From positions 1-37,201 of IMG/VR virus record IMGVR_UViG_3300027956_000023: a DNA stretch of 37,201 nucleotides. One strand, 5' to 3'. Shown here one piece after another: positions 3,366 through 37,201 of this stretch. Position numbers and translations under genes: made by a program. Position 1 is the stretch's first letter; every line of letters begins with the position of its first letter. The stretch is from a virus. Its lineage: Duplodnaviria; Caudoviricetes. The notes below the pieces were generated by a model. That model saw only the letters and a list, made by a program, of their open reading frames with translations, was not told the DNA's origin and ran no database searches.

Positions 3366-3430
3366 CAGGAAATTACATGGAAAGATCGAAAGGGATTCAC
3401 GGGCACACTTTGTGGGGCAAAGTGACGGGC

Positions 3431-3880
3431 ATGGAAAGCGACCAGGTGAAGGAACGGAAAGCGGGAAAGAGCGGGAAGGGGAAGGAACCCATTATCCGTC
3501 CTTCCGGCGCAGTGAAAAAAAATGGGCCGGATCCCAAGTCCGTCGCGGAGTCCGACTGGTCACGGGTACTCGATGCGGCTTCTCTCGGGATCCCATTTGA
3601 GCGGCTTTGCCATCTAGCCGGCATGACGGACAAGACCTTCACGAAGTACTTGCTGCGATATCCAGAACGGAAGGAAGCCATCGAAGCCGCAAGGACTCGG
3701 GGGGAGTATGACCTCACCTCCGTTGTCCGCCAGTGTGGTAACGGCTGGCAAGGCTCCGCTTGGCTATTAGAAAGAACGAGAGGCTACGTCGCCCGCGCTC
3801 AACTCGATCACACTACCAAAGGAAAGGAGTTGTCGGTAAGTGGTAATCTACTAGGAGCGTTTGGTGGTGGAAACAAATAG
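3431..3880 (+). CDS. terS: Putative terminase small subunit
   Basis: Directly upstream of terL; HTH-like GIPFERLCHLAGMTDKTFTKY; WQGSAWLLER motif typical of TerS-position genes. Start could be 3377. Confidence 0.7.
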   Translation: MESDQVKERKAGKSGKGKEPIIRPSGAVKKNGPDPKSVAESDWSRVLDAASLGIPFERLCHLAGMTDKTFTKYLLRYPERKEAIEAARTRGEYDLTSVVRQCGNGWQGSAWLLERTRGYVARAQLDHTTKGKELSVSGNLLGAFGGGNK

Positions 3881-3883
3881 GAT

Positions 3884-3985
3884 AGCGTATACCAATAAGC
3901 GTATAGCAATAGGGACGACGGGGTAGGGGGGACCCCCACGAGGGGGGTGGGGTGATACCTGATACCCCCTCCCCGTACCCAACCC
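3884..3985. other. Repeat- and G/C-tract-rich terS-terL spacer; candidate packaging (pac) region
   Basis: Tandem AGCGTATASCAATA x2 (3884-3911), several G4-G6 runs, TGATACC x2, complementary C runs. Confidence 0.4.
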
Positions 3986-3991
3986 AATTTT

Positions 3992-5533
3992 ATGGCAGTC
4001 AAGCAAATTAAGCGCAAGAAATCCCCTTCACTCGGCATGGGTTCGCATATCCCTGCTTGGAAGCAGCGGAAGCTCTTGGAGGAAGCTCAGCACCTCTCGA
4101 ACTTCCCTGAGATGATGCTTGGCCTACGCGATACCTATGCGTGGCAGAAGGCGGTGTTGGGGGCTCTGAACGAGAAGCATGCGAAGGTGGCGTTGAAGGC
4201 TGCGAACGGCTCTGGCAAGACGAGCATGGTGGCGGCGTCGGCTGTCATATGGCACATGCTTCGCTGGCCGGGGAGTCTGGTGGTATGTACGGCTGGTGTG
4301 TACCGACAGGTGGCCGACGCTCTGTGGCCGCATCTGCGGAAGATGATCAATGGCTTGGGTGGCGAGGAGAACGGTTTCTCGATCAAGGATGGCGAGATCC
4401 GCTATGTATACCCGAGGTTGGTTGATGGCCAACAATTGATCAGTCGCTGCATCGGGTTCTCAGCCAGCAACCCGGAGAAGGCTGAGGGCTGGCATGTGCA
4501 GGGTCCGAGCAACGACCTGATGTACATTGTGGACGAGGCGAAGGCGGTGCCGGACGGGATCTTTCAGTCGATGGAGCGGTGCCAGCCGACGCGGACGCTG
4601 CTGATGAGCAGCCCCGGTGGCAGCAGCGGGTACTTCTACGATGTATTCCGCCGGAACGACGGCAAGTGGAAGACCTTTACCGTTACCGCTTTCGACTGCC
4701 CGCATATCCGGAAGGAGTGGATCGATGATCAGTTCGCCCGCTGGGGCGAGGGTCACCCGCTGGTTCGCTCGATGATCTACGCGGAGTTCATGGAGGACGA
4801 TGGGAGCCTTACGGCTGTACGGACCGCCGACTGGCAGAAGCTGGTTAGTGGCCCACCCAAGGAGGATACCGAGGGGCACCGGTTGACCGCGGGTTGCGAC
4901 TTCTCAGCCGGCGGGGACGAGAGTGTGATGGTGGTGAGACAAGGGAACACGGTGAAGGGTCTGATCCGCTGGCGGGACAAGGACACGATGGCGAGTGTGG
5001 GCCGGTTCATCAGTGAGTTTCGGAAGTGGAAGCTGAAGGCTGAGGATATCTATGCCGACGTAGGAGGCATGGGGGTGGTGATGTGCGATGCGCTGAGGGC
5101 GGAGGGGTGGGACGTGCGGCGGGTGAACTTCGGGGAGCGGGCGATACGGGATGATCAGTTCGTGAACAAGGCGGCTGAGATGTGGATCGAGTTCGGGCGG
5201 ATGGTGGAGGAGGGGCGAGTGAACCTGGGACCGGTGGGTACGGATGAGGTGCTGCTCCAGCAGTTTGTGAGTCGGAAGGTGAGGACCAATGGCAAGGGGA
5301 AGCTGACATTGGAGGGTAAGGACGAGCTGCGAGCCCGCGGGGTGAATAGTCCGGATAGGGCGGATGCGGTGGTGCTGGCCTTCTGCGGAGCCGGGGGGAA
5401 GCGGATGGACGATTACATGAAGGCGTTGGGCGAGGATGGGAGGAGCCTATTGGAGCGGATGGAGGATGAGATGGGGGCGATTGAGGGGGATGGTAAAGGG
5501 TCTGCGCTTGCTGGTTGTGAGGTTGGGGGATAG
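3992..5533 (+). CDS. terL: Terminase large subunit
   Basis: Walker A AANGSGKT, Walker B YIVDEA, coupling motif SSP, nuclease acidic motifs GCDFSAGGDES and SPDRADA. Confidence 0.95.
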   Translation: MAVKQIKRKKSPSLGMGSHIPAWKQRKLLEEAQHLSNFPEMMLGLRDTYAWQKAVLGALNEKHAKVALKAANGSGKTSMVAASAVIWHMLRWPGSLVVCTAGVYRQVADALWPHLRKMINGLGGEENGFSIKDGEIRYVYPRLVDGQQLISRCIGFSASNPEKAEGWHVQGPSNDLMYIVDEAKAVPDGIFQSMERCQPTRTLLMSSPGGSSGYFYDVFRRNDGKWKTFTVTAFDCPHIRKEWIDDQFARWGEGHPLVRSMIYAEFMEDDGSLTAVRTADWQKLVSGPPKEDTEGHRLTAGCDFSAGGDESVMVVRQGNTVKGLIRWRDKDTMASVGRFISEFRKWKLKAEDIYADVGGMGVVMCDALRAEGWDVRRVNFGERAIRDDQFVNKAAEMWIEFGRMVEEGRVNLGPVGTDEVLLQQFVSRKVRTNGKGKLTLEGKDELRARGVNSPDRADAVVLAFCGAGGKRMDDYMKALGEDGRSLLERMEDEMGAIEGDGKGSALAGCEVGG

Positions 5534-29937: not shown

Positions 29938-30367
29938 CCCAGGCGTGAACGGCGGGTTCGCAATTCATACCAAGGACGGGATCCTCCTGTTCGCAATGCC
30001 CGAGTCCTTACCGGATATGGCGCAACTACTAAGCGGATTCAAATTAGCAGATAGCCATCTCTGGATTGAGAAGGTCCCCAAGTTCGTGTCAAAGCTGACT
30101 CCTGCTGCTTCGGTCGCCACCCTGCATGAGAACTACGGCATCATCCAAGGACTGGCCTACTCTCTTGGCTACGCCCTACACCGCGTGGAACCCAAGATCT
30201 GGCAGGATCCTCTTGGACTCGGTGGAAAACGATCCTGCGCCAACTCCGCGGAATGGAAGCGCAAGCTCAAGAGCAAAGCCCAGGAACTATACCCGCACCT
30301 CGACGTGACGTTGAAGAACTGCGACGCCCTGCTGGTTCTCCACTACGCAACCGGAGGCGGTCGATGA
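29909..30367 (+). CDS. RuvC-like Holliday junction resolvase
   Basis: VACDPGVNGG, WIEKV, V-x-P-x-x-WQ, CDALLV acidic motifs. Confidence 0.85.
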   Translation: MTNKTIVACDPGVNGGFAIHTKDGILLFAMPESLPDMAQLLSGFKLADSHLWIEKVPKFVSKLTPAASVATLHENYGIIQGLAYSLGYALHRVEPKIWQDPLGLGGKRSCANSAEWKRKLKSKAQELYPHLDVTLKNCDALLVLHYATGGGR

Positions 30368-30528
30368 GTCAGCAGGCCAAGCGATTGATCAACGATGGTA
30401 CCGGGGTGTACCAGATGAGCAGAAGCCAAGCCGGTGAAATATATCGTGCAGCGAAGAAATTGAAGAAATATGAAATCAGCTATTGGAATAGGAATAAAAG
30501 GAACAAACAAACCCAAACGAAACCGTGA
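30364..30528 (+). CDS. Small basic hypothetical protein, 54 aa
   Basis: ATGA overlap at 30364 (MSQQAKRLIND...). Confidence 0.55.
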   Translation: MSQQAKRLINDGTGVYQMSRSQAGEIYRAAKKLKKYEISYWNRNKRNKQTQTKP

Positions 30529-30664
30529 TCTTGTTAAACACGTTTTAGTGTCACCAGATGTGCATGCTGAGTTAAAGGCATACGCAATCAAAAATGGATA
30601 TAGAACTCAGGGACTGGCAGATGAAGCAATTGCAGAATATCTAAAGAGACAGGAAACCAAATGA
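30470..30664 (+). CDS. Ribbon-helix-helix DNA-binding protein
   Basis: KHVLVSPDVHAELKAYAIKNG...LADEAIAEYL pattern. Confidence 0.75.
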   Translation: MKSAIGIGIKGTNKPKRNRDLVKHVLVSPDVHAELKAYAIKNGYRTQGLADEAIAEYLKRQETK

Positions 30665-31014
30665 ACATCGAAGAAACCAAAGAAGCCATCCGCATCATGC
30701 AGGCATTTGTGGACGGGAAGGAAGTGGAGTGGAATTATCGGGGGATTGAAAGATGGGAAACAATAATCTCACCCAAGTGGAATTGGATTGATAACGAATA
30801 CCGCATCAAACCCACCCCAACATTCCGCCCGTGGACTGCGGATGAGGTGCCGCTGGGTGCGTGGATGAGAATGAAGTCAGACAGAGAATACAGATTCCTG
30901 ATATCCAACACTGAAAGTTTTAGTGGTAGAGAACACTGGTTGGAAGATTTTGAACATAGCACCGACGGCGGTAAAACGTGGAAGGAGTGCGGGGTGATGG
31001 AGGAGGCGAAATGA
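30661..31014 (+). CDS. Accessory phage protein (GKEVE...P-x-WNW...YRIKP family)
   Basis: AFVDGKEVE, PKWNW, YRIKP, STDGGKTW; ends EEAK. Confidence 0.85.
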   Translation: MNIEETKEAIRIMQAFVDGKEVEWNYRGIERWETIISPKWNWIDNEYRIKPTPTFRPWTADEVPLGAWMRMKSDREYRFLISNTESFSGREHWLEDFEHSTDGGKTWKECGVMEEAK

Positions 31015-31175
31015 GCGAAGAACTATTGAACAAACTATTGGAATACATCGACGCAGCAATCGACGCGAAATCTGAACAAGCCAACTCTGAAGATGGAGGA
31101 TTGATTGAACAGCTTCGAAAATTTCGCGTAAGGGATGAACTGTTCAACCTAATTAAGAAGGAGGCCAAGCCGTGA
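31011..31175 (+). CDS. Accessory hypothetical protein, 54 aa
   Basis: GGAGG plus ATGA-coupled start; ends KEAKP. Confidence 0.75.
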   Translation: MSEELLNKLLEYIDAAIDAKSEQANSEDGGLIEQLRKFRVRDELFNLIKKEAKP

Positions 31176-31546
31176 AGTACCGCAAGAAACCAGTCGTCAT
31201 TGAAGCGACTCAATGGATGAGGCATGGCGATCATCCGTTGGACTACAGCAAAACGCACGATGGATTTGAGAACGGTGAATTGCGCCAGTTCTCTCCAGAG
31301 CATCGCAAGCAAATGCAGTGGGAGGGCGACATCGTGCGATACTACCGATTGCCCGGTGTGAACGGCATGACAAAGTGCAAGCATTGCAACCGGATCATGC
31401 ACGACCACGGTTGGATCGACACGCTGGAAGGTGGGCACATCGTCTGCCCCGGCGACTACATCATCACCGGAGTAAAGGGCGAACACTATCCGTGCAAGCC
31501 CGACATTTTCTGGAGGACCTATGAGATGGTGGAGGAATCGAAATGA
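31172..31546 (+). CDS. YRKKPVVIEA...PGDYII family phage protein with CxxC insertion
   Basis: YRKKPVVIEATQW, IDTLEG, PGDYIITGVKGEHYPCKPDIF. Confidence 0.88.
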   Translation: MKYRKKPVVIEATQWMRHGDHPLDYSKTHDGFENGELRQFSPEHRKQMQWEGDIVRYYRLPGVNGMTKCKHCNRIMHDHGWIDTLEGGHIVCPGDYIITGVKGEHYPCKPDIFWRTYEMVEESK

Positions 31547-31836
31547 GCGCACCAATCAACGACGGAGGACCGGCGTTTCCACATACAACGAAATGGGACG
31601 GAATTACTCCAGCAATCAATTACCATGGCATGACCCTGCGTCAATACGCTGCGATCAAACTACGCGTTCCAGCCAGCGGAACGGATTGGCTGGATGAGAT
31701 GATCCGCAAATCAAATCGCGACATCTTTGCGGCGCATGCAATCAACGAAGTGGGGTGGTATGAAAACATGGATAAGTCCGCAGCAATGGCATACCTCATC
31801 GCCGACGCGATGCTCAAAGCGAGGGAGGCGAAATGA
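31543..31836 (+). CDS. GGPAFP...GMTLR family phage protein
   Basis: NDGGPAFP, GMTLRQYAA, AYLIADAMLKAR. Confidence 0.85.
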   Translation: MSAPINDGGPAFPHTTKWDGITPAINYHGMTLRQYAAIKLRVPASGTDWLDEMIRKSNRDIFAAHAINEVGWYENMDKSAAMAYLIADAMLKAREAK

Positions 31837-32252
31837 GCGATACCCCAATATCAGACTCGACTCCTCACAACGTGGCCGAACTCGGCATGCTGTGCAGGAG
31901 GTTGGAACGCGAACTCAACGAAGCCAACAAAACAAACAGACTCCAATACGAACTGATAACGACCGCAGAAAAGCGTGGAGTAGATAAAAGTAAAGAGGAA
32001 CTCAACGCGGCCAATGAGCGCATTAAACGGCTGGAGGCAGTTGTCAACGACCCTCACGCCCTGTGGGCCAACTGGTTGCGTGGGAGCGTTGCTCTGCCGG
32101 TGGGCATCGGTGACGTAAGGGAGTATCAAGACCGCATCAAGCGGTTGGAGGCAGCGGGGGATGCGATGGAAAAGTATATCTTCGATCAAACCAACACTCG
32201 ATGGATTATATGCGCTGTTCAATGGCGCGAAGCCAAGGAGGCCAAGCTGTGA
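31833..32252 (+). CDS. Accessory coiled-coil protein
   Basis: SDTP start, RRLERELN, two RIKRLE modules, ends EAKEAKL. Confidence 0.8.
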   Translation: MSDTPISDSTPHNVAELGMLCRRLERELNEANKTNRLQYELITTAEKRGVDKSKEELNAANERIKRLEAVVNDPHALWANWLRGSVALPVGIGDVREYQDRIKRLEAAGDAMEKYIFDQTNTRWIICAVQWREAKEAKL

Positions 32253-32614
32253 AAACCGCACCAGACAAATGCCCGTTCTGCGAATCGCCGATCATGGTTC
32301 ACGGCGGGAACATACTGAGGTCGGATAACTGCGGATTCGCTACCTACGAATGCCGTACCGTTTACGATGTCGAACTAGCTGACAATCAATGGAAACGGGC
32401 AGAGCAATCTATGGCATGTAAGACTCGTGAAAATCAACTACTGACAAAGCAGCGTGATGAAGCTCGTGAGCGCATCAAGCGGCTGGAGGAGGCTTTGGAC
32501 TTAGTAGTACTTCACTGCTCATGGGTTCATCATTCAAAAAAACATCAACACAAATACGGCGAACCATGTCCGGTAGTTGCGTTGATTGAAAAAGCCAAGG
32601 AGGCCAAGCTATGA
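32249..32614 (+). CDS. Accessory protein with CPFC motif and coiled coil
   Basis: GTGA-coupled start; CPFC; ERIKRLE; ends KAKEAKL. Confidence 0.78.
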   Translation: MKTAPDKCPFCESPIMVHGGNILRSDNCGFATYECRTVYDVELADNQWKRAEQSMACKTRENQLLTKQRDEARERIKRLEEALDLVVLHCSWVHHSKKHQHKYGEPCPVVALIEKAKEAKL

Positions 32615-32814
32615 CACTTGAAGAACACCTTCGGTATATGGCTGAAGACCCTTTCGGGCCGTGTGACAAAAACTCACTACGCAAATTCGCACTCGATGTC
32701 CGCAAGCTGGAGGATCGGGTGAAACAACTGGAGCAGGAGAACGACGCATTGCGAGCGGATCTGCTGCTGTGGGACAAAGCTGGCATCGGATTTACCACGG
32801 AGGACAAGTCGTGA
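32611..32814 (+). CDS. Accessory coiled-coil protein, 67 aa
   Basis: ATGA-coupled; LEDRVKQLEQENDALR. Confidence 0.75.
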   Translation: MTLEEHLRYMAEDPFGPCDKNSLRKFALDVRKLEDRVKQLEQENDALRADLLLWDKAGIGFTTEDKS

Positions 32815-33092
32815 ACCTCAACGATTCCCAGCGCAAGCTCATCACCAACAGCATTTCCACTGTTTGGAAGGGAAAGCGCGAATGCCCGATCTGCATCCCC
32901 ACCACCGTTTGGAGCATTGGAACCGTCGTTGAGGTCCGAGAGTTCAACGAAGGCAATCACTGCCCCGGCGCTGCAATTACTCCGCTGATCCAAGTTCAGT
33001 GCAACAACTGTGGGTACACCGTGTTGTTCAACGCCATTGCATTGGGTGTCGTTGACCGAGACACCGGCAAGGTGAAGGAGGTGAAGCCGTGA
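32811..33092 (+). CDS. Zinc-ribbon protein, 93 aa
   Basis: GTGA-coupled; CPIC and CNNCGY pairs. Confidence 0.8.
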   Translation: MNLNDSQRKLITNSISTVWKGKRECPICIPTTVWSIGTVVEVREFNEGNHCPGAAITPLIQVQCNNCGYTVLFNAIALGVVDRDTGKVKEVKP

Positions 33093-33292
33093 AACGCTAC
33101 ACCCACATCGTATTGCGACGAATGCCTCCACTGAATGGATTCAGCATCAAGACTCCAGAAGGTAAGTTCCTAAGCGACATACGTCCACGGGGCATCGTGC
33201 GAGAACTCAATCGTCTCAACGACCGCATCAAAGAACTCGAAGCCAAAGTGGATGAACTCCACGACTTGGAGAAATGGTTGGAGGGAAGATGA
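33089..33292 (+). CDS. Accessory hypothetical protein, 67 aa
   Basis: GTGA-coupled; RELNRLNDRIKELE. Confidence 0.75.
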   Translation: MKRYTHIVLRRMPPLNGFSIKTPEGKFLSDIRPRGIVRELNRLNDRIKELEAKVDELHDLEKWLEGR

Positions 33293-33507
33293 TCGTACCC
33301 ATCGGCCCTGCCGCATTCGTGTTCCGCCACAAGAGAACCGGCCAGATTTTCGTCGCACCCAGCGAGCGGTGGCATGAGTTCTACGACAACAAAGAGGACT
33401 GGGAACACACTGCGAGCGTGAATGCTTGCGGAGCTTTACAGTACATCATCGACGCCAAACCGGCTGAGAGGAACCGATACATCAAGTCACTTACGAAGAA
33501 ACCATGA
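33289..33507 (+). CDS. Accessory hypothetical protein, 72 aa
   Basis: ATGA-coupled start at 33289 with GGAGG upstream. Confidence 0.72.
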   Translation: MIVPIGPAAFVFRHKRTGQIFVAPSERWHEFYDNKEDWEHTASVNACGALQYIIDAKPAERNRYIKSLTKKP

Positions 33508-33680
33508 CCATCGAACAAATGAGAACCATCGACGCCGTCAAGACTTGGAAGGAACTGGAGGAGGCCAAGGAGCGCATCAAGCACCTGGAATCAGCCATCC
33601 GGAAGACCATCGACGACAACCGACACCTGGCCGACGGAGACAACTGCACCCTGATCGACCTCAAGAAAGCCCTTGCATAA
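33504..33680 (+). CDS. Accessory coiled-coil protein, 58 aa (MTIEQMRTIDAVKTWKELEEAKERIKHLE...)
   Basis: Hand-translated; ATGA overlap; same EAK/ERIK module as its neighbours. Confidence 0.72.
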   Translation: MTIEQMRTIDAVKTWKELEEAKERIKHLESAIRKTIDDNRHLADGDNCTLIDLKKALA

Positions 33681-33700
33681 CCAACGAATAGAAGAGAAAA

Positions 33701-33946
33701 ATGACGATACTCCAACAATTAGGGTTGACGAAGGAATCCATGTCACGCATGGTCGGCCATGTCACTCCGTTCAAGGATCCGAACCCTCGGATCAACCGGC
33801 GGTGGCCGGCTGTTCCAACCGAGATCCGAGATGCCATCCTTAAGGAGGACAAGTCACGCACTTACCCAGAACTATCCAAGAAGTACGGTATCTCACTGTC
33901 ATGCGTATGGAACATCAGGAACAACAAAAACAACAAACAACAATAG
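33701..33946 (+). CDS. HTH DNA-binding protein
   Basis: RTYPELSKKYGISLSCVWNIR. Confidence 0.78.
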   Translation: MTILQQLGLTKESMSRMVGHVTPFKDPNPRINRRWPAVPTEIRDAILKEDKSRTYPELSKKYGISLSCVWNIRNNKNNKQQ

Positions 33947-34086
33947 AGGAACTACAACGATGGAAACAGTTATGTCACGAATTGGCCGATTGCTTGGGAT
34001 GCGGATGCACAATCCAACACGGCCTGTGTGTCCAGTGCCACAAAGCACAGAAGCGGTACCGAGCAGTCCAAATACCTTTGAGGTAG
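33907..34086 (+). CDS. Small Cys-rich protein (possible)
   Basis: LQRWKQLCHELADCLGCGC...CVQC; overlaps the preceding gene's 3' end. Confidence 0.45.
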   Translation: MEHQEQQKQQTTIEELQRWKQLCHELADCLGCGCTIQHGLCVQCHKAQKRYRAVQIPLR

Positions 34087-34142
34087 TAGCAGTCAGTAAG
34101 AAGAAGAGCAGGAAGCACAACGTCCTGCTCAAACCCAACTAC

Positions 34143-34514
34143 ATGAAACTTAGCGATTCAATCGACACGGTTGTCAAACTACGGACTGAAGGTCTCACCT
34201 ACCGGCTCATCGGTGAACACCTCAAGATGTCCAAGCAGCGCGTCTATCAGATCATCCAAGCCGGCAAGCAGCGCGATCTGGATAGGTCTAAGTGGACCTT
34301 CGGACTCAGCGTCCGGAACGCCAAGCTGATGGATAAGCTCGGTATCACTTGCAGCGAATCCGCGAGGGTTGCTGTTGCAACAGGAGAGATCGCTCCGTTC
34401 AAGTGGGCCAACTTTGGTCGCAAGTCCTACACCGACCTCTGCCAGTGGCTCGATGTCAAACCGCTTGAATCCATTCCCAATCGGAAATGTCCTCACTGCG
34501 GACTCAAAACATGA
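34143..34514 (+). CDS. sigma70 region-4-like HTH fused to RNA polymerase alpha-CTD-like domain, with C-terminal CPHC
   Basis: EGLTYRLIGEHLKMSKQRVYQI (sigma4-type HTH) followed by GLSVRN...LGI...NFGRKSYTDL (alpha-CTD LSVR and N-x-G-x-K-S signatures). The ORF is open further upstream, so the start is uncertain. Confidence 0.75.
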   Translation: MKLSDSIDTVVKLRTEGLTYRLIGEHLKMSKQRVYQIIQAGKQRDLDRSKWTFGLSVRNAKLMDKLGITCSESARVAVATGEIAPFKWANFGRKSYTDLCQWLDVKPLESIPNRKCPHCGLKT

Positions 34515-34774
34515 CCGCTCGTCACCAATACCCACTCGTAGAATCAATCAAGGTGGTCCGTCTCTCCTCGGGGCGGACCATCCGCATTACAAGGGATCGT
34601 ACCAAGCAGGATCTCAAACTGATCCACGGCGACGGAGACATCCATCTCACCTGCGTCACTCACGCCGACGATCCAATCGAGATGATCAAGACACTGGCCC
34701 GCCTCGAAGACGTTCGATCAGTCGAACTCACCGACGACAAAGGCAACGGAATCATAGTCCACAAACAAAAATAA
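34511..34774 (+). CDS. Hypothetical protein, 87 aa
   Basis: ATGA-coupled to the previous gene; beta-rich. Confidence 0.7.
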   Translation: MTARHQYPLVESIKVVRLSSGRTIRITRDRTKQDLKLIHGDGDIHLTCVTHADDPIEMIKTLARLEDVRSVELTDDKGNGIIVHKQK

Positions 34775-34775
34775 C

Positions 34776-35021
34776 ATGCACCAGTCCTCAACACACGACA
34801 TCGTAACGGCACTCAAGATCGTCAGCACCCAAATCGAATCATCCGATGGAGTCGCACAAGCCCTCTGCCTCGAAGCAGCAAGTCGTCTCACTGACATGGT
34901 CCAGCTCACGAGCGACCTCACAGCACACGTTCTCGCCAATCCTGTCCATCACCCTCGATGTAACTCCAAGACCAAGGGTACCTACTGCAATTGTATCCTG
35001 GCGCGAGTCCTCCCCACATGA
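34776..35021 (+). CDS. Hypothetical protein with C-terminal H/C cluster
   Basis: EAASRL helix; HHPRC...CNC. Confidence 0.72.
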   Translation: MHQSSTHDIVTALKIVSTQIESSDGVAQALCLEAASRLTDMVQLTSDLTAHVLANPVHHPRCNSKTKGTYCNCILARVLPT

Positions 35022-35281
35022 AGACCCCAAGACACGAACAACCCTGGTACGAATCACGCCTGCTCAATAACAAGAAACCCAGCCCCATCACCGAAGAGGA
35101 ACGAACAAGCATCACCGACGAGAACCGTCGGCTCATCGAGGAGTCGGCCAGTATCATTGCCACCGGCGTCAAACGCGGATGGATCTCCTTCCCGGCGAAG
35201 ACCGAAGCCGAGACCTGGGTGCCATCACCAACCGGTCCCCAGCCACCAGATCCTCTCAGCATGATCTGGCCAGAATCCTAA
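35018..35281 (+). CDS. Hypothetical protein, 87 aa
   Basis: ATGA-coupled start (MKTPRHEQPWY). Confidence 0.68.
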   Translation: MKTPRHEQPWYESRLLNNKKPSPITEEERTSITDENRRLIEESASIIATGVKRGWISFPAKTEAETWVPSPTGPQPPDPLSMIWPES

Positions 35282-35311
35282 CAACCCCCTAACAAGCAAC
35301 GAATCAACGAC

Positions 35312-37138
35312 ATGACAACGCTCCAACGAGCGGCCCTTTGGCTTTCCAAGGTACCGCCAGCCATCTCCGGATCCGGTGGCCACAACGCCACCTACACCGC
35401 CGCAGTCGGTCTCGTCCACGGCTTCGCCCTCTCCCATGTGGACAGCCTCACCCTCCTCGAAGACTGGAACAAGTCCTGCCAACCCCCGTGGAAGGCCACA
35501 GAGCTGGCCTACAAGCTCCGAGATGCCGCGTCCCGCGCTCACAATAAGCCTAGGGGCCATCTTCTCGAAGCCGGGGGATCATCACCCTCCGGATCATTCG
35601 ACATCAGCAGGGTGACATTCAAGAAGCCGGTGGCCGACGCCCCGGTGCCAGTTCCATCGCTCAGCCCCGTCGCTCCAGATCCACAAGCCAGCGAGTTTAA
35701 GCGGTTCATGCTGGCCGCGTTCGCCCCGACTGAAGTCGTCTGCATCTGCGACGCCGTCGAGGAGGGTAGGCCAGTCAGTGCCGGCTCATTCATCACGATC
35801 GAGGAATGGCTCAACCGCTTCGATGATCCCCAGTCCCGCATCCTGTCCCCGGAGCGCGAAGGCATCTTCGTCCGCATCAACCCCTTCAAGCCCAACCTCT
35901 ACAGCGGCAGCGACAACGATGTCAGCGCGTTCCGCCATGTCCTAGTCGAGTTCGATGACCTCCCAAAGCCCGAGCAGGAACAACGCCTCCGGGACTCTGG
36001 CCTACCCATCACCGTCCTCATCGACTCCGGGGGCAAGAGCATCCATGGCTGGGTCCGGGTGGACGCCCCATCCCGCAAGGAATGGGACGCCCGCCGGGAT
36101 GAGATCTATCGGGTAATCCCCGGCATCGATGCCAAGAACAAGAACCCCTCGCGCTACTCCCGCCTCCCCGGCGCATGGCGCAGCCCCACCTCGCAGCAAC
36201 GGTTGTTGGACACCAACCTGGGTGCCGCATCCTGGGAGGATTGGCTCACCAACCGCGAGACCGATGATGACCAGTCCACCATCGTCACGGTCAAAGACCT
36301 CCTCGACTTCGATCCCAAGAATGATCCGGACAACCTCATCGGCAATCGTTGGATCACTCGCGGCTCATCCATGATCATCAGCGGCGGTACCGGCATCGGG
36401 AAGTCCAGCCTGATGATGCAGATCATCGTCCGCTGGTGCCTCGGCCTCGACTTCTTTGGCATCGCGCCGATCAAGCCATTGAAGATCGGGGTCATCCAAG
36501 CGGAGAACGACCGCGGCGATCTCTCCGAAGCCTTCCGCGGGGTCACACACAGGAAGTTCACCATCGAGCAGATGAACATGCTTCATAGGAACCTGGAGTT
36601 CCGCACCGAGACCGTTCGCACCGGCGAGCAGTTCTTGGCCTACGCCCGCCGATTCATCCACAAGTCCAAGCTCGATCTCATCATCGCCGATCCCCTGTTC
36701 TCCTACTTCGGCGGAGACCTGAGCGATCAATCCGAGGTCAGCGTCTTCCTCCGCAACAAGCTCCAGCCCATCCTCCACGAGACCAAGGTCGCTTGGATCT
36801 GGATGCACCACGTCTCCAAGCCCCAACGCAAGGAAACCGGCGAACCCCTCACCACCATGGAACTGGCCCACTCAGGCTTCGGCTCCTCCGAACTCGCCAA
36901 TTGGGCGCGGGAGATTGCCGTTCTCCATGAAGTAGGCCAATCAAAGCCTAGACGCTTCCAATTGGCCTTCTGCAAGCGGGGAGGGAGGATTGGACTCCCT
37001 TCCCCCATTCTCAACCTTCAGCACTCAGCCACCGGCATCCAGTGGGAGGAGTGCAACCCCCTCGCGTTCACTGGGGCTGATCTGAAGGGGGAGAAGAGCG
37101 GGAAGCCTTCTTATCCTCGTCGAGGGCGTCGCGCATAG
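35312..37138 (+). CDS. Primase-helicase: PriCT-like N-terminus, AEP/RepB-type primase, AAA_25/RepA-type helicase
   Basis: PAISGSGGH...WNKSCQPPW; LVEFDD, DSGGKSIHGW, NPSRYSRLPG; Walker A GGTGIGKS, QAEND, IIADP, MHH, GSSEL. Confidence 0.9.
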   Translation: MTTLQRAALWLSKVPPAISGSGGHNATYTAAVGLVHGFALSHVDSLTLLEDWNKSCQPPWKATELAYKLRDAASRAHNKPRGHLLEAGGSSPSGSFDISRVTFKKPVADAPVPVPSLSPVAPDPQASEFKRFMLAAFAPTEVVCICDAVEEGRPVSAGSFITIEEWLNRFDDPQSRILSPEREGIFVRINPFKPNLYSGSDNDVSAFRHVLVEFDDLPKPEQEQRLRDSGLPITVLIDSGGKSIHGWVRVDAPSRKEWDARRDEIYRVIPGIDAKNKNPSRYSRLPGAWRSPTSQQRLLDTNLGAASWEDWLTNRETDDDQSTIVTVKDLLDFDPKNDPDNLIGNRWITRGSSMIISGGTGIGKSSLMMQIIVRWCLGLDFFGIAPIKPLKIGVIQAENDRGDLSEAFRGVTHRKFTIEQMNMLHRNLEFRTETVRTGEQFLAYARRFIHKSKLDLIIADPLFSYFGGDLSDQSEVSVFLRNKLQPILHETKVAWIWMHHVSKPQRKETGEPLTTMELAHSGFGSSELANWAREIAVLHEVGQSKPRRFQLAFCKRGGRIGLPSPILNLQHSATGIQWEECNPLAFTGADLKGEKSGKPSYPRRGRRA

Positions 37139-37201
37139 CCTTGAACCAATCCTCTCCATCAGCCGCTTTCTCTTCGGGGGGAGCGGCTTGTTGCTGTTGG
37201 G
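36877..37201. repeat. Terminal direct repeat, right copy
   Basis: Matches 1-325 with one mismatch. Confidence 0.95.

Follow-up and report, generated by a model that had tools for sequence, protein, structure and literature searches.

The C-terminal domain of the RNA polymerase (RNAP) alpha subunit (alpha-CTD) and region 4 of sigma factors are the parts of RNAP that read the DNA upstream of the promoter and receive most activators. Arg265 of alpha-CTD is crucial to its contact with the UP element, and this residue is modified by the phage T4 proteins Alt and ModA, as described in a published account (PMC2988021). Phage G1 gp67 is reported to block the DNA contact of alpha-CTD. Stand-alone phage proteins with an alpha-CTD are also on record: the Pfam family PF03118 (RNA_pol_A_CTD) matched gp26 of Microbacterium phage Mazun (E = 1.7e-13), gp005 of Bacillus phage vB_BmeM-Goe8 (E = 4.3e-22), and gp23 of Ruegeria phage vB_RpoS-V16 (E = 1.2e-10), the functions of which are annotations only. 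Here, we analyzed the gene at 34143-34514 (+) of a 37.2-kb IMG/VR virus record (IMGVR_UViG_3300027956_000023, Caudoviricetes, rated 99% complete), which as a whole is referred to as the window. With moderate confidence, its 123-residue product, P0001, is read as a sigma region 4 (sigma-4)/LuxR-type helix-turn-helix (HTH) joined to a diverged alpha-CTD, that is, as a predicted two-module DNA binder and likely transcription regulator of the phage.

The P0001 gene and its relatives

Translation of 34143-34514 on the plus strand gives 123 residues and a stop codon, which is included in these coordinates. The four motifs from which the initial annotation of this sequence had started were all found at the positions it reported, with LRTEGLTYRLIGEHLKMSKQRVYQI at residues 13-37, GLSVRNAKLMDKLGI at residues 54-68, NFGRKSYTDLCQWL at residues 90-103, and CPHC at residues 116-119 (nucleotides 34488-34499). 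Relatives with 57-100% identity were present at 52 IMG/VR loci and represented 24 distinct proteins, and a second IMG/VR scan with the C-terminal profile yielded 54 loci, two of which (L117 and L118) had 38-39% full-length identity. Among 42 distinct locus sequences, the variation in 34143-34511 amounted to 470, 356, and 952 at codon positions 1, 2, and 3, respectively; this concentration at third positions demonstrates that the P0001 gene is real and under coding selection. The extent of the coding sequence was assigned from translation, codon-position variation, the relatives, and an ATGA overlap in L117 and L118 described below.

The C-terminal alpha-CTD-like domain

Residues 52-103 of P0001 (34296-34451, +) are predicted to form an alpha-CTD-like domain with two helix-hairpin-helix motifs, (HhH)2, as indicated by hhalign, matches in a wider protein family, a fold search, and AlphaFold2 (AF2) models. 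Judged from profile comparison, the stretch is a true remote homologue of alpha-CTD, because the profile-profile score, the PF03118 matches and profile probability of the wide family, and the ranking in the fold search all point this way. The profile-profile comparisons were run against alpha-CTD sets assembled in this analysis. The reference set contained 11 alpha-CTDs, comprising residues 249-329 of E. coli rpoA, the three named phage proteins, and seven alpha-CTD-like segments of further records in the phage collection, the majority resembling bacterial rpoA ends. The C-terminal profile of the P0001 clade aligned to this set with a hhalign probability of 85% (E = 6e-6); the alignment spans 47 columns and is interrupted once, by a 3-residue gap. 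The score of 33.65 was about 11 standard deviations above that of 200 column shuffles (10.3 ± 2.1, maximum 19.4), none of which reached it, and the reversed clade profile scored 17.9.

A HMMER search with the domain profile against 1.84 billion representative proteins retrieved 195 proteins (counted as clusters at 50% identity) at E ≤ 0.001, including 23 at E ≤ 1e-10 and reaching down to 1e-26. When P0001 and 146 of the 150 listed members of this wide family were scanned with Pfam at E ≤ 0.001 (two members of its own clade and two long repeat proteins were omitted), 46 of these 147 proteins matched Sigma70_r4, 30 matched RNA_pol_A_CTD (best E = 1.4e-9), and 17 matched HTH_23, with both Sigma70_r4 and RNA_pol_A_CTD present in P0095 and P0105. 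The wide-family profile aligned to the set of 11 alpha-CTDs with a probability of 96.9% (E = 2e-10) and to a set from the PVC (Planctomycetes-Verrucomicrobia-Chlamydiae) group with 98.1%.

The AF2 model of residues 46-123 had a predicted local distance difference test score (pLDDT) of 75.7 and contained helices 58-66, 71-80, and 93-102, corresponding to three of the four helices of the domain, with residues 46-57 mostly in coil. This isolated-domain model was compared with 48,161 chains in a fold search independent of Foldseek. The first ranks were taken by residues 251-302 of the mycobacterial RNAP complex (5vi8_T, Z = 4.7), the B. subtilis alpha-CTD (1z3e_B, Z = 4.6, 57 of 67 residues aligned, 23% identity), and residues 273-325 of a plastid alpha subunit (8w9z_A, Z = 4.5), followed by the H. 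pylori alpha-CTD at rank 6 (2max, Z = 4.3) and residues 256-315 of E. coli alpha at rank 9 (4mex_A, Z = 3.9). The alpha-CTD entries aligned over 52-59 residues with root mean square deviations of 2.2-3.0. Taken alone, such low Z-scores give the fold class only; together with the sequence evidence, they agree with an alpha-CTD. A search of the ESM Atlas with residues 46-123 placed PF03118 clusters second and third, with scores of 0.77 and 0.76, which serves as a lead only. Comparison of P0001 and the clade profile with PDB sequences gave nothing relevant, and tblastn against 50,697 named phage records gave for P0001 HTH-level matches only (E ≥ 0.7) and for P0105 none.

The initial annotation had claimed an alpha-CTD-like domain and proposed Pfam searches with each half as well as a comparison of AlphaFold models by Foldseek. 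The domain itself is borne out by the hhalign probability of 85%, the PF03118 matches in 30 of 147 relatives, and the leading position of alpha-CTDs in the fold search, but P0001 remained below the PF03118 threshold. Similarly, P0001 stayed under the Pfam cut-offs with both halves, whereas Sigma70_r4 was matched by all 13 diverse clade members and PF03118 by the 30 relatives. No alpha-CTD was obtained via Foldseek, but alpha-CTDs came first in the Foldseek-independent search (Z = 3.9-4.7). The model of the C-terminal half is compatible with an (HhH)2 fold, with three of the four helices and low Z-scores.

The N-terminal HTH

Residues 1-45 (34143-34277, +) are a sigma-4/LuxR-class HTH, as identified by sub-threshold Pfam matches, PHROG 686, a clade scan, AF2, and Foldseek. 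Within residues 10-40, P0001 matched HTH_23 (E = 0.0026), HTH_28 (E = 0.0041), and Sigma70_r4 (E = 0.0059) below threshold; for Sigma70_r4 (PF04545), residues 14-39 scored 16.5 bits versus a gathering cut-off of 24.1. PHROG 686 ('HTH DNA binding protein') matched with E = 8.6e-7. Sigma70_r4 was the only family matched by all 13 diverse clade members (E ≤ 0.05, best 5.8e-5), followed by HTH_23 with 11 and HTH_7 and HTH_28 with 10 members each, and its best E value in the wide family was 9.1e-10. The AF2 model of full-length P0001 (mean pLDDT 83.7) contained helices 3-15 and 20-27 and a long helix 31-66, with a pLDDT of 85-95 in the HTH. Foldseek with this model gave local matches to sigma region 4 (3n97_A with TMt 0.74, 1rio_H, and 8jzt_E) and to the LuxR/GerE-type proteins DosR, GerE, NarL, and RcsB, all at E ≥ 0.7; the archaeal factor 8hno/8hnp was also among the rows.

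Family profile scans of P0001 gave no match to sigma region 2 or 3, and P0001 is therefore not a sigma factor. TIGR02937 covered only residues 9-42 with 15.6 bits versus a cut-off of 42.9, and NCBIfam Tfx matched residues 4-74 weakly (E = 0.026). The sigma70 region-4-like HTH of the initial annotation is thus retained in that all 13 clade members and 46 of the 147 wider relatives matched Sigma70_r4, but P0001 itself lies below threshold and is as LuxR/transposase-like as it is sigma-like. The claim of a fusion of such an HTH to an alpha-CTD-like domain is supported by the homology of both halves and their shared architecture in the wide family.

Conservation of the DNA-contact residues and the Cys-His tail

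The register between P0001 and alpha-CTD was taken from the hhalign alignment, E. coli numbering was derived from translated rpoA, and conservation was evaluated in the 13 diverse clade members. Besides R265, the DNA-binding residues of the '265 determinant' are N268, C269, N294, G296, K298, and S299. Five of these seven residues are kept in P0001: the equivalents of R265 (R58), N294 (N90), G296 (G92), and S299 (S95) are invariant, and that of K298 (K94) is K or R, with R in two members. At the position of N268, P0001 has K61 (K or R in the clade), and C269 is replaced by L62. K297 corresponds to the variable R93. Invariant altogether were R58, N59, N90, F91, G92, S95, Y96, D98, L99, C100, and W102, with variation at V57. 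Residues D258, D259, and E261 form the acidic alpha-CTD patch that contacts sigma region 4; D259 aligns to T52 and E261 to G54, both invariant in the clade and not acidic. On the basis of this alignment, the DNA-contact face of alpha-CTD is largely kept in P0001 and the acidic sigma-4-contact patch is absent. Both DNA-contact signatures had been described as kept in the initial annotation. Among homologues, this is correct for most of the LSVR and NFGRKS residues, including the invariant R58, N90, G92, and S95 and the K/R at K94, but not for the equivalents of N268 and C269 (K and L), for the Arg of NFGRKS (R93), or for V57.

The alpha-CTD-like domain is followed by a C-terminal tail with a CPHC knuckle (residues 104-123, 34452-34511, +), which was modelled with low confidence (pLDDT 55-62). 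Within the close clade, C116, H118, C119, and G120 do not vary, and the wide family has the consensus CPHCG at this place; the CPHC tail is absent in L117, L118, and P0074. A co-fold of two P0001 copies with zinc gave a score of 0.01 compared with a mark of 0.42 and bears on neither a dimer nor a zinc-bridged pair.

The wide family and its possible origin

The members of the wide metagenomic family have an HTH, an alpha-CTD-like domain, and a CPHCG tail, the same three-part architecture as P0001 (e.g. P0095, P0105, and the proteins of L199-L204). Helix 1 of the wide family reads LSVRAANCLNN and many members are recognized by PF03118, whereas the P0001 clade has diverged to LSVRNAKLM. Variants without the HTH occur (P0082, P0154, and P0169). 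As a separate observation, P0118, P0127, P0128, and P0147 contain two alpha-CTD-like copies per protein. None of ten members looked up carries a name. P0105-like members are encoded on six IMG/VR contigs (L199-L204) of 17-211 kb.

Genome contigs were scanned with the helix-1 pattern of a family subset (A9), covering 11 of the 64 parts of the collection. Relatives, the hosts' own rpoA, accounted for 582 of the 600 stretches scanned, and 79 of the best 80 matches lay in frames of at least 280 residues, the size of rpoA. Nearly all matches listed came from metagenome-assembled genomes of Verrucomicrobiota and Kiritimatiellia, with the alpha-CTD motif LSVRAANCLNN, and no small fusion protein was among the matches listed from these 11 of 64 parts. 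A genome-contig scan with the clade alignment gave 84 pattern matches and no relative. The A9 subset aligned to 73 distinct PVC alpha-CTDs with a probability of 98.0% (E = 2.7e-13, 42% identity), versus 95.6% (E = 1.1e-8) for the mixed set; the corresponding probability of the P0001 clade profile against the 73 PVC rpoA alpha-CTDs was 86.8%. These comparisons suggest that the family may have been captured from a host rpoA, possibly of the Verrucomicrobiota type, where the scan pattern itself selected the LSVRAANCLNN motif.

The genes around distant members differ. In L204, a primase-helicase gene, a small-terminase-like gene, and a 163-residue open reading frame (ORF) are followed by the family member and the large terminase gene, and in L202 the family member is followed by a 75-residue ORF and the large terminase gene. 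The member in L201 follows a gene for a MazG-like pyrophosphatase (3597-4429), with Sak4-like and helicase genes nearby, and that in L199 lies near an HD phosphohydrolase gene. The family gene was thus found just upstream of packaging genes at two of the four distant loci examined (L202 and L204). An association of alpha-CTD with MazG was seen twice, as an alpha-CTD fused to a protein annotated as a pyrophosphatase in V16 gp23 (L055) and as the MazG-like gene directly upstream of the family member in L201.

Start codon of the P0001 gene

In public gene calls, 61 of 66 clusters are 177-190 residues long with a start ATG at 33960. The sequence data support the 123-residue form starting at 34143 as the product, because the variation at 33960-34086 follows the frame of an upstream Cys-rich ORF and not the P0001 frame, as determined by codon-position counts, the 56-nucleotide spacer 34087-34142 has no codon periodicity (154/211/216 for positions 1/2/3), the spacer is missing from L117 and L118, where the upstream stop and the MKL start overlap as ATGA, and leaders without a Shine-Dalgarno (SD) motif are common in this phage. 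A/C-rich leaders without such a motif precede most genes of the phage, the P0001 gene included, and those of the large terminase, capsid, RecT, single-strand binding protein (SSB), and primase genes resemble that of the P0001 gene; at least five of the six AGGAGG positions were matched at approximately 9 of 40 gene starts checked. As SD-less leaders are usual here, the absence of the motif is no argument against a start at 34143.

It is quite unlikely that the true product is a 184-residue form from 33960, which would overlap the Cys-rich ORF and carry 61 extra residues as a basic, disordered N-terminal arm. Apart from the public gene calls, such a form would fit with a P0001 frame that is open upstream in every relative, with GAGGA 10 nucleotides ahead of the ATG at 33960, and with third positions of the Cys-rich ORF that vary in 18 of 43 columns of the overlap versus 103 of 123 for the P0001 core. 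It would also fit with the indels in the spacer, all of which are multiples of three among relatives despite the lack of periodicity, an unexplained observation. However, 33960-34086 has the codon-position pattern of the other frame and the spacer has none, the ATGA coupling at MKL in L117 and L118 favors the short form, SD-less A/C-rich leaders are the rule in the phage, and the same frame is also open across the preceding HTH gene, so that its openness looks compositional. A minor long isoform alongside the 123-residue form is possible, because of the multiple-of-three indels and the low third-position variation of the Cys-rich ORF in the overlap.

Genome context and neighboring elements

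The genes identified in the phage lie on the plus strand, beginning with those of the two terminase subunits, the portal, and the major capsid protein, which precede a long block of tail genes and a replication block. The latter comprises genes for a RecT-like protein, an exonuclease, SSB, a helicase, and a resolvase, small ORFs including that of P0001, and a primase-helicase gene at 35312-37138. The P0001 gene belongs to the early/replication module, where it is surrounded by other small ORFs of HTH or Cys-rich type and lies approximately 800 nucleotides upstream of the primase-helicase gene. Scans of the phage ORFs detected no RNAP or sigma factor gene, in line with the description of the genome in the initial annotation.

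A 61-residue Cys/His-rich ORF (…CHELADCLGCGC…CVQCH…, 33901-34086, +), recognized by its codon-position pattern in a frame different from that of P0001, immediately precedes the P0001 gene in every relative examined. It overlaps the end of the preceding 81-residue HTH ORF (33701-33946) and gave no family match. A -1 frameshift fusing this Cys-rich ORF to P0001 was considered and dropped; by eye, no slippery heptamer was visible near the Cys-rich stop. The purine-rich, non-periodic spacer (34087-34142, +) contains an 8-bp hairpin at 34106-34130 (GAGCAGGA...TCCTGCTC) with -15.8 kcal/mol (z = -2.1), and 7 of 200 shuffles were as good. Downstream, the ATG of an 87-residue ORF (34511-34774, +), assigned from sequence, overlaps the TGA of P0001 as ATGA; a homologue was found in L052 and none in L117, and there was no family match. 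The order HTH, Cys-rich ORF, P0001, and primase is retained down to 38% identity.

Further features of the region were noted. An 81-residue Cys/His-rich ORF at 34776-35021 (+), ending in HHPRCN…CNC, is kept in distant relatives (e.g. L117:3173-3466). Several small ORFs at 31995-33594 contain the same coding motif in repeated form (…ERIKRLE…, direct repeats D1 and D2) and look like coiled-coil-like early-region paralogues. Repeats in 30300-37201 were coding-sequence echoes and SD junctions, with no iterons or repeats near the P0001 gene. A/C-rich leaders without an SD motif are found, for example, at the gene starts 3992, 9504, 26601, 28180, and 35312, and a perfect AGGAGG at a smaller set of closely spaced small genes (31172, 32611, and 33089).

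Proposed function of P0001 and its alternatives

The most likely reading of P0001 is an ordinary one, namely an HTH-type regulator of the phage that carries an additional HhH module for DNA binding. The recognition helix of the HTH would read a specific major-groove site and, in the full-length AF2 model, continues as one long helix (residues 31-66) into the alpha-CTD-like helix 1. The alpha-CTD-like domain may then be placed on the neighboring minor groove and backbone, as alpha-CTD is on UP elements, and the two modules would together read a composite site as one rigid unit. Bound there, P0001 might turn phage promoters on or off, with an early-to-late switch as the most likely role; imitation of RNAP is not presupposed. 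We count in favor of a regulator that the P0001 gene lies in the early/replication module among other small HTH and Cys-rich ORFs, that at two of the four distant loci, L202 and L204, the large terminase gene follows shortly after the family gene, and that scans of the phage ORFs revealed neither an RNAP nor a sigma factor gene. Late activators are often encoded at such a position ahead of the large terminase gene.

A number of results weigh against this assignment. The long connecting helix is present in the full-length model only, and the isolated-domain model shows residues 46-57 as mostly coil. In a six-frame search of the window, PF03118 gave no match at E ≤ 10, while all 14 control genomes were matched, 10 of them over the gathering cut-off (23.8 bits), and none of the 13 diverse clade members matched at E ≤ 0.05. 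The equivalents of N268 and C269 are not kept in the P0001 clade. No Z-score in the fold search reached 5, and other (HhH)2/SAM-like domains tied at Z = 3-4.5. Foldseek gave 10 rows at E ≥ 5 without an alpha-CTD for the C-terminal model, and HTH matches only, none at E ≤ 0.001 and again no alpha-CTD, for the full model. Sigma-70-type promoter-like sites in 30300-37201 numbered 0 versus 3.6 expected, which together with the SD-less leaders hints at a host with unusual initiation signals, and a search for binding sites revealed no 10-mer common to at least three of 16 intergenic regions. Finally, the local context is about equally compatible with a role in replication.

An RNAP mimic or decoy, as proposed in the initial annotation, would sit on the -35/UP region of strong host promoters and silence them, or titrate activators, NusA, or other alpha-CTD partners as a factor for host take-over; this is the most interesting reading, though an unlikely one. 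Phages are known to target alpha-CTD, as do T4 Alt and ModA (PMC2988021) and G1 gp67. The two P0001 modules are homologues of RNAP parts that occupy adjacent positions on a promoter, P0001 retains the residues with which alpha-CTD contacts DNA, and LSVRAANCLNN of the wide family equals helix 1 of Verrucomicrobiota/Kiritimatiellia rpoA, as would suit imitation. However, helix 1 of the P0001 clade has diverged from this host-like motif to LSVRNAKLM, T52 and G54 stand in place of the acidic patch that contacts sigma-4, the HTH consists of just three helices and is no closer to sigma than to LuxR/transposase HTHs, and nothing connects P0001 to RNAP. It is also improbable that phages of Verrucomicrobiota-like hosts captured the host alpha-CTD and joined it to an HTH of the sigma-4 type and a zinc-knuckle tail to give a new class of transcription take-over factor; such a free 'promoter-upstream reader' could replace RNAP alpha at host UP/-35 sites or guide the host RNAP to phage promoters.

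The position of the gene within the recombination/replication block ahead of the primase-helicase gene would suit a replication factor that binds the phage origin and helps to load or position the primase-helicase encoded approximately 800 nucleotides downstream, as would the gene order kept to 38% identity and the L201 member between Sak4-like and helicase genes. This role is nevertheless unlikely in view of the L202 and L204 members, which adjoin terminase and not replication genes, and of the lack of iterons or repeats nearby; primase-helicases of this kind often recognize origins themselves. Very improbable is a packaging helper similar to a small terminase, in which HTH and HhH would mark the packaging site. 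In L202, a single ORF separates the family member from the large terminase gene downstream, and no further small terminase was detected in the stretch examined; one of the 147 relatives matches Pfam Phage_terminase (small subunit), and a small-terminase chain appeared at Foldseek rank 22. Yet a separate small-terminase-like gene of this phage is present at 3377-3880 (phrog_4102, E = 4e-5), approximately 30 kb from the P0001 gene in the record, a gene of this kind also lies beside the L204 member, and the two-copy co-fold (0.01 versus 0.42) gave no verdict on an oligomer.

Comparison with known systems

While both domains of P0001 are well known, the fusion architecture and the family appear to be new. 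No paper on phage alpha-CTD-like proteins or on an HTH/alpha-CTD fusion was found in a search that had most subscription journals outside its range and that likewise yielded no description of small phage proteins composed precisely of alpha-CTD and sigma region 4 homologues. If P0001 binds DNA as predicted, it would exemplify a naturally compact way of reading DNA through two grooves. If it competes or cooperates with the host alpha-CTD, it would provide a new phage route to redirect transcription, besides the modification of alpha-CTD (T4 Alt/ModA) and the reported block of its DNA contact (phage G1 gp67). The likeness of helix 1 to that of Verrucomicrobiota rpoA may further serve as a handle on the hosts of uncultured phages.

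P0001 gave no Pfam or PHROG match to the late activators RinA/ArpU, and its gene is located upstream of the primase gene and not the terminase gene; likewise, there was no Pfam or PHROG match to small terminase subunits. Mazun gp26 ('DNA binding protein', 141 residues), Goe8 gp005 ('RNA polymerase subunit alpha', 210 residues), and V16 gp23 ('pyrophosphatase', 288 residues) resemble P0001 as stand-alone phage proteins with an alpha-CTD domain, but have no Pfam HTH, no CPHCG tail, and no direct sequence match to P0001. With sigma-70 region 4 (PF04545) and the LuxR/GerE HTH, P0001 shares the three-helix HTH and its sequence pattern; unlike region 4 proper, it lies below the cut-off and is equally close to HTH_23, HTH_28, and HTH_7. 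With alpha-CTD (PF03118), it shares the collinear motifs LSVR-helix 1 and N-x-G-x-K-S-helix 4, and an (HhH)2 fold is predicted for it. In contrast to the alpha subunit, P0001 has neither the N-terminal assembly domain nor the linker, contains three extra residues between helices 2 and 4 with helix 3 modelled as a loop, and carries an added Cys-His tail.

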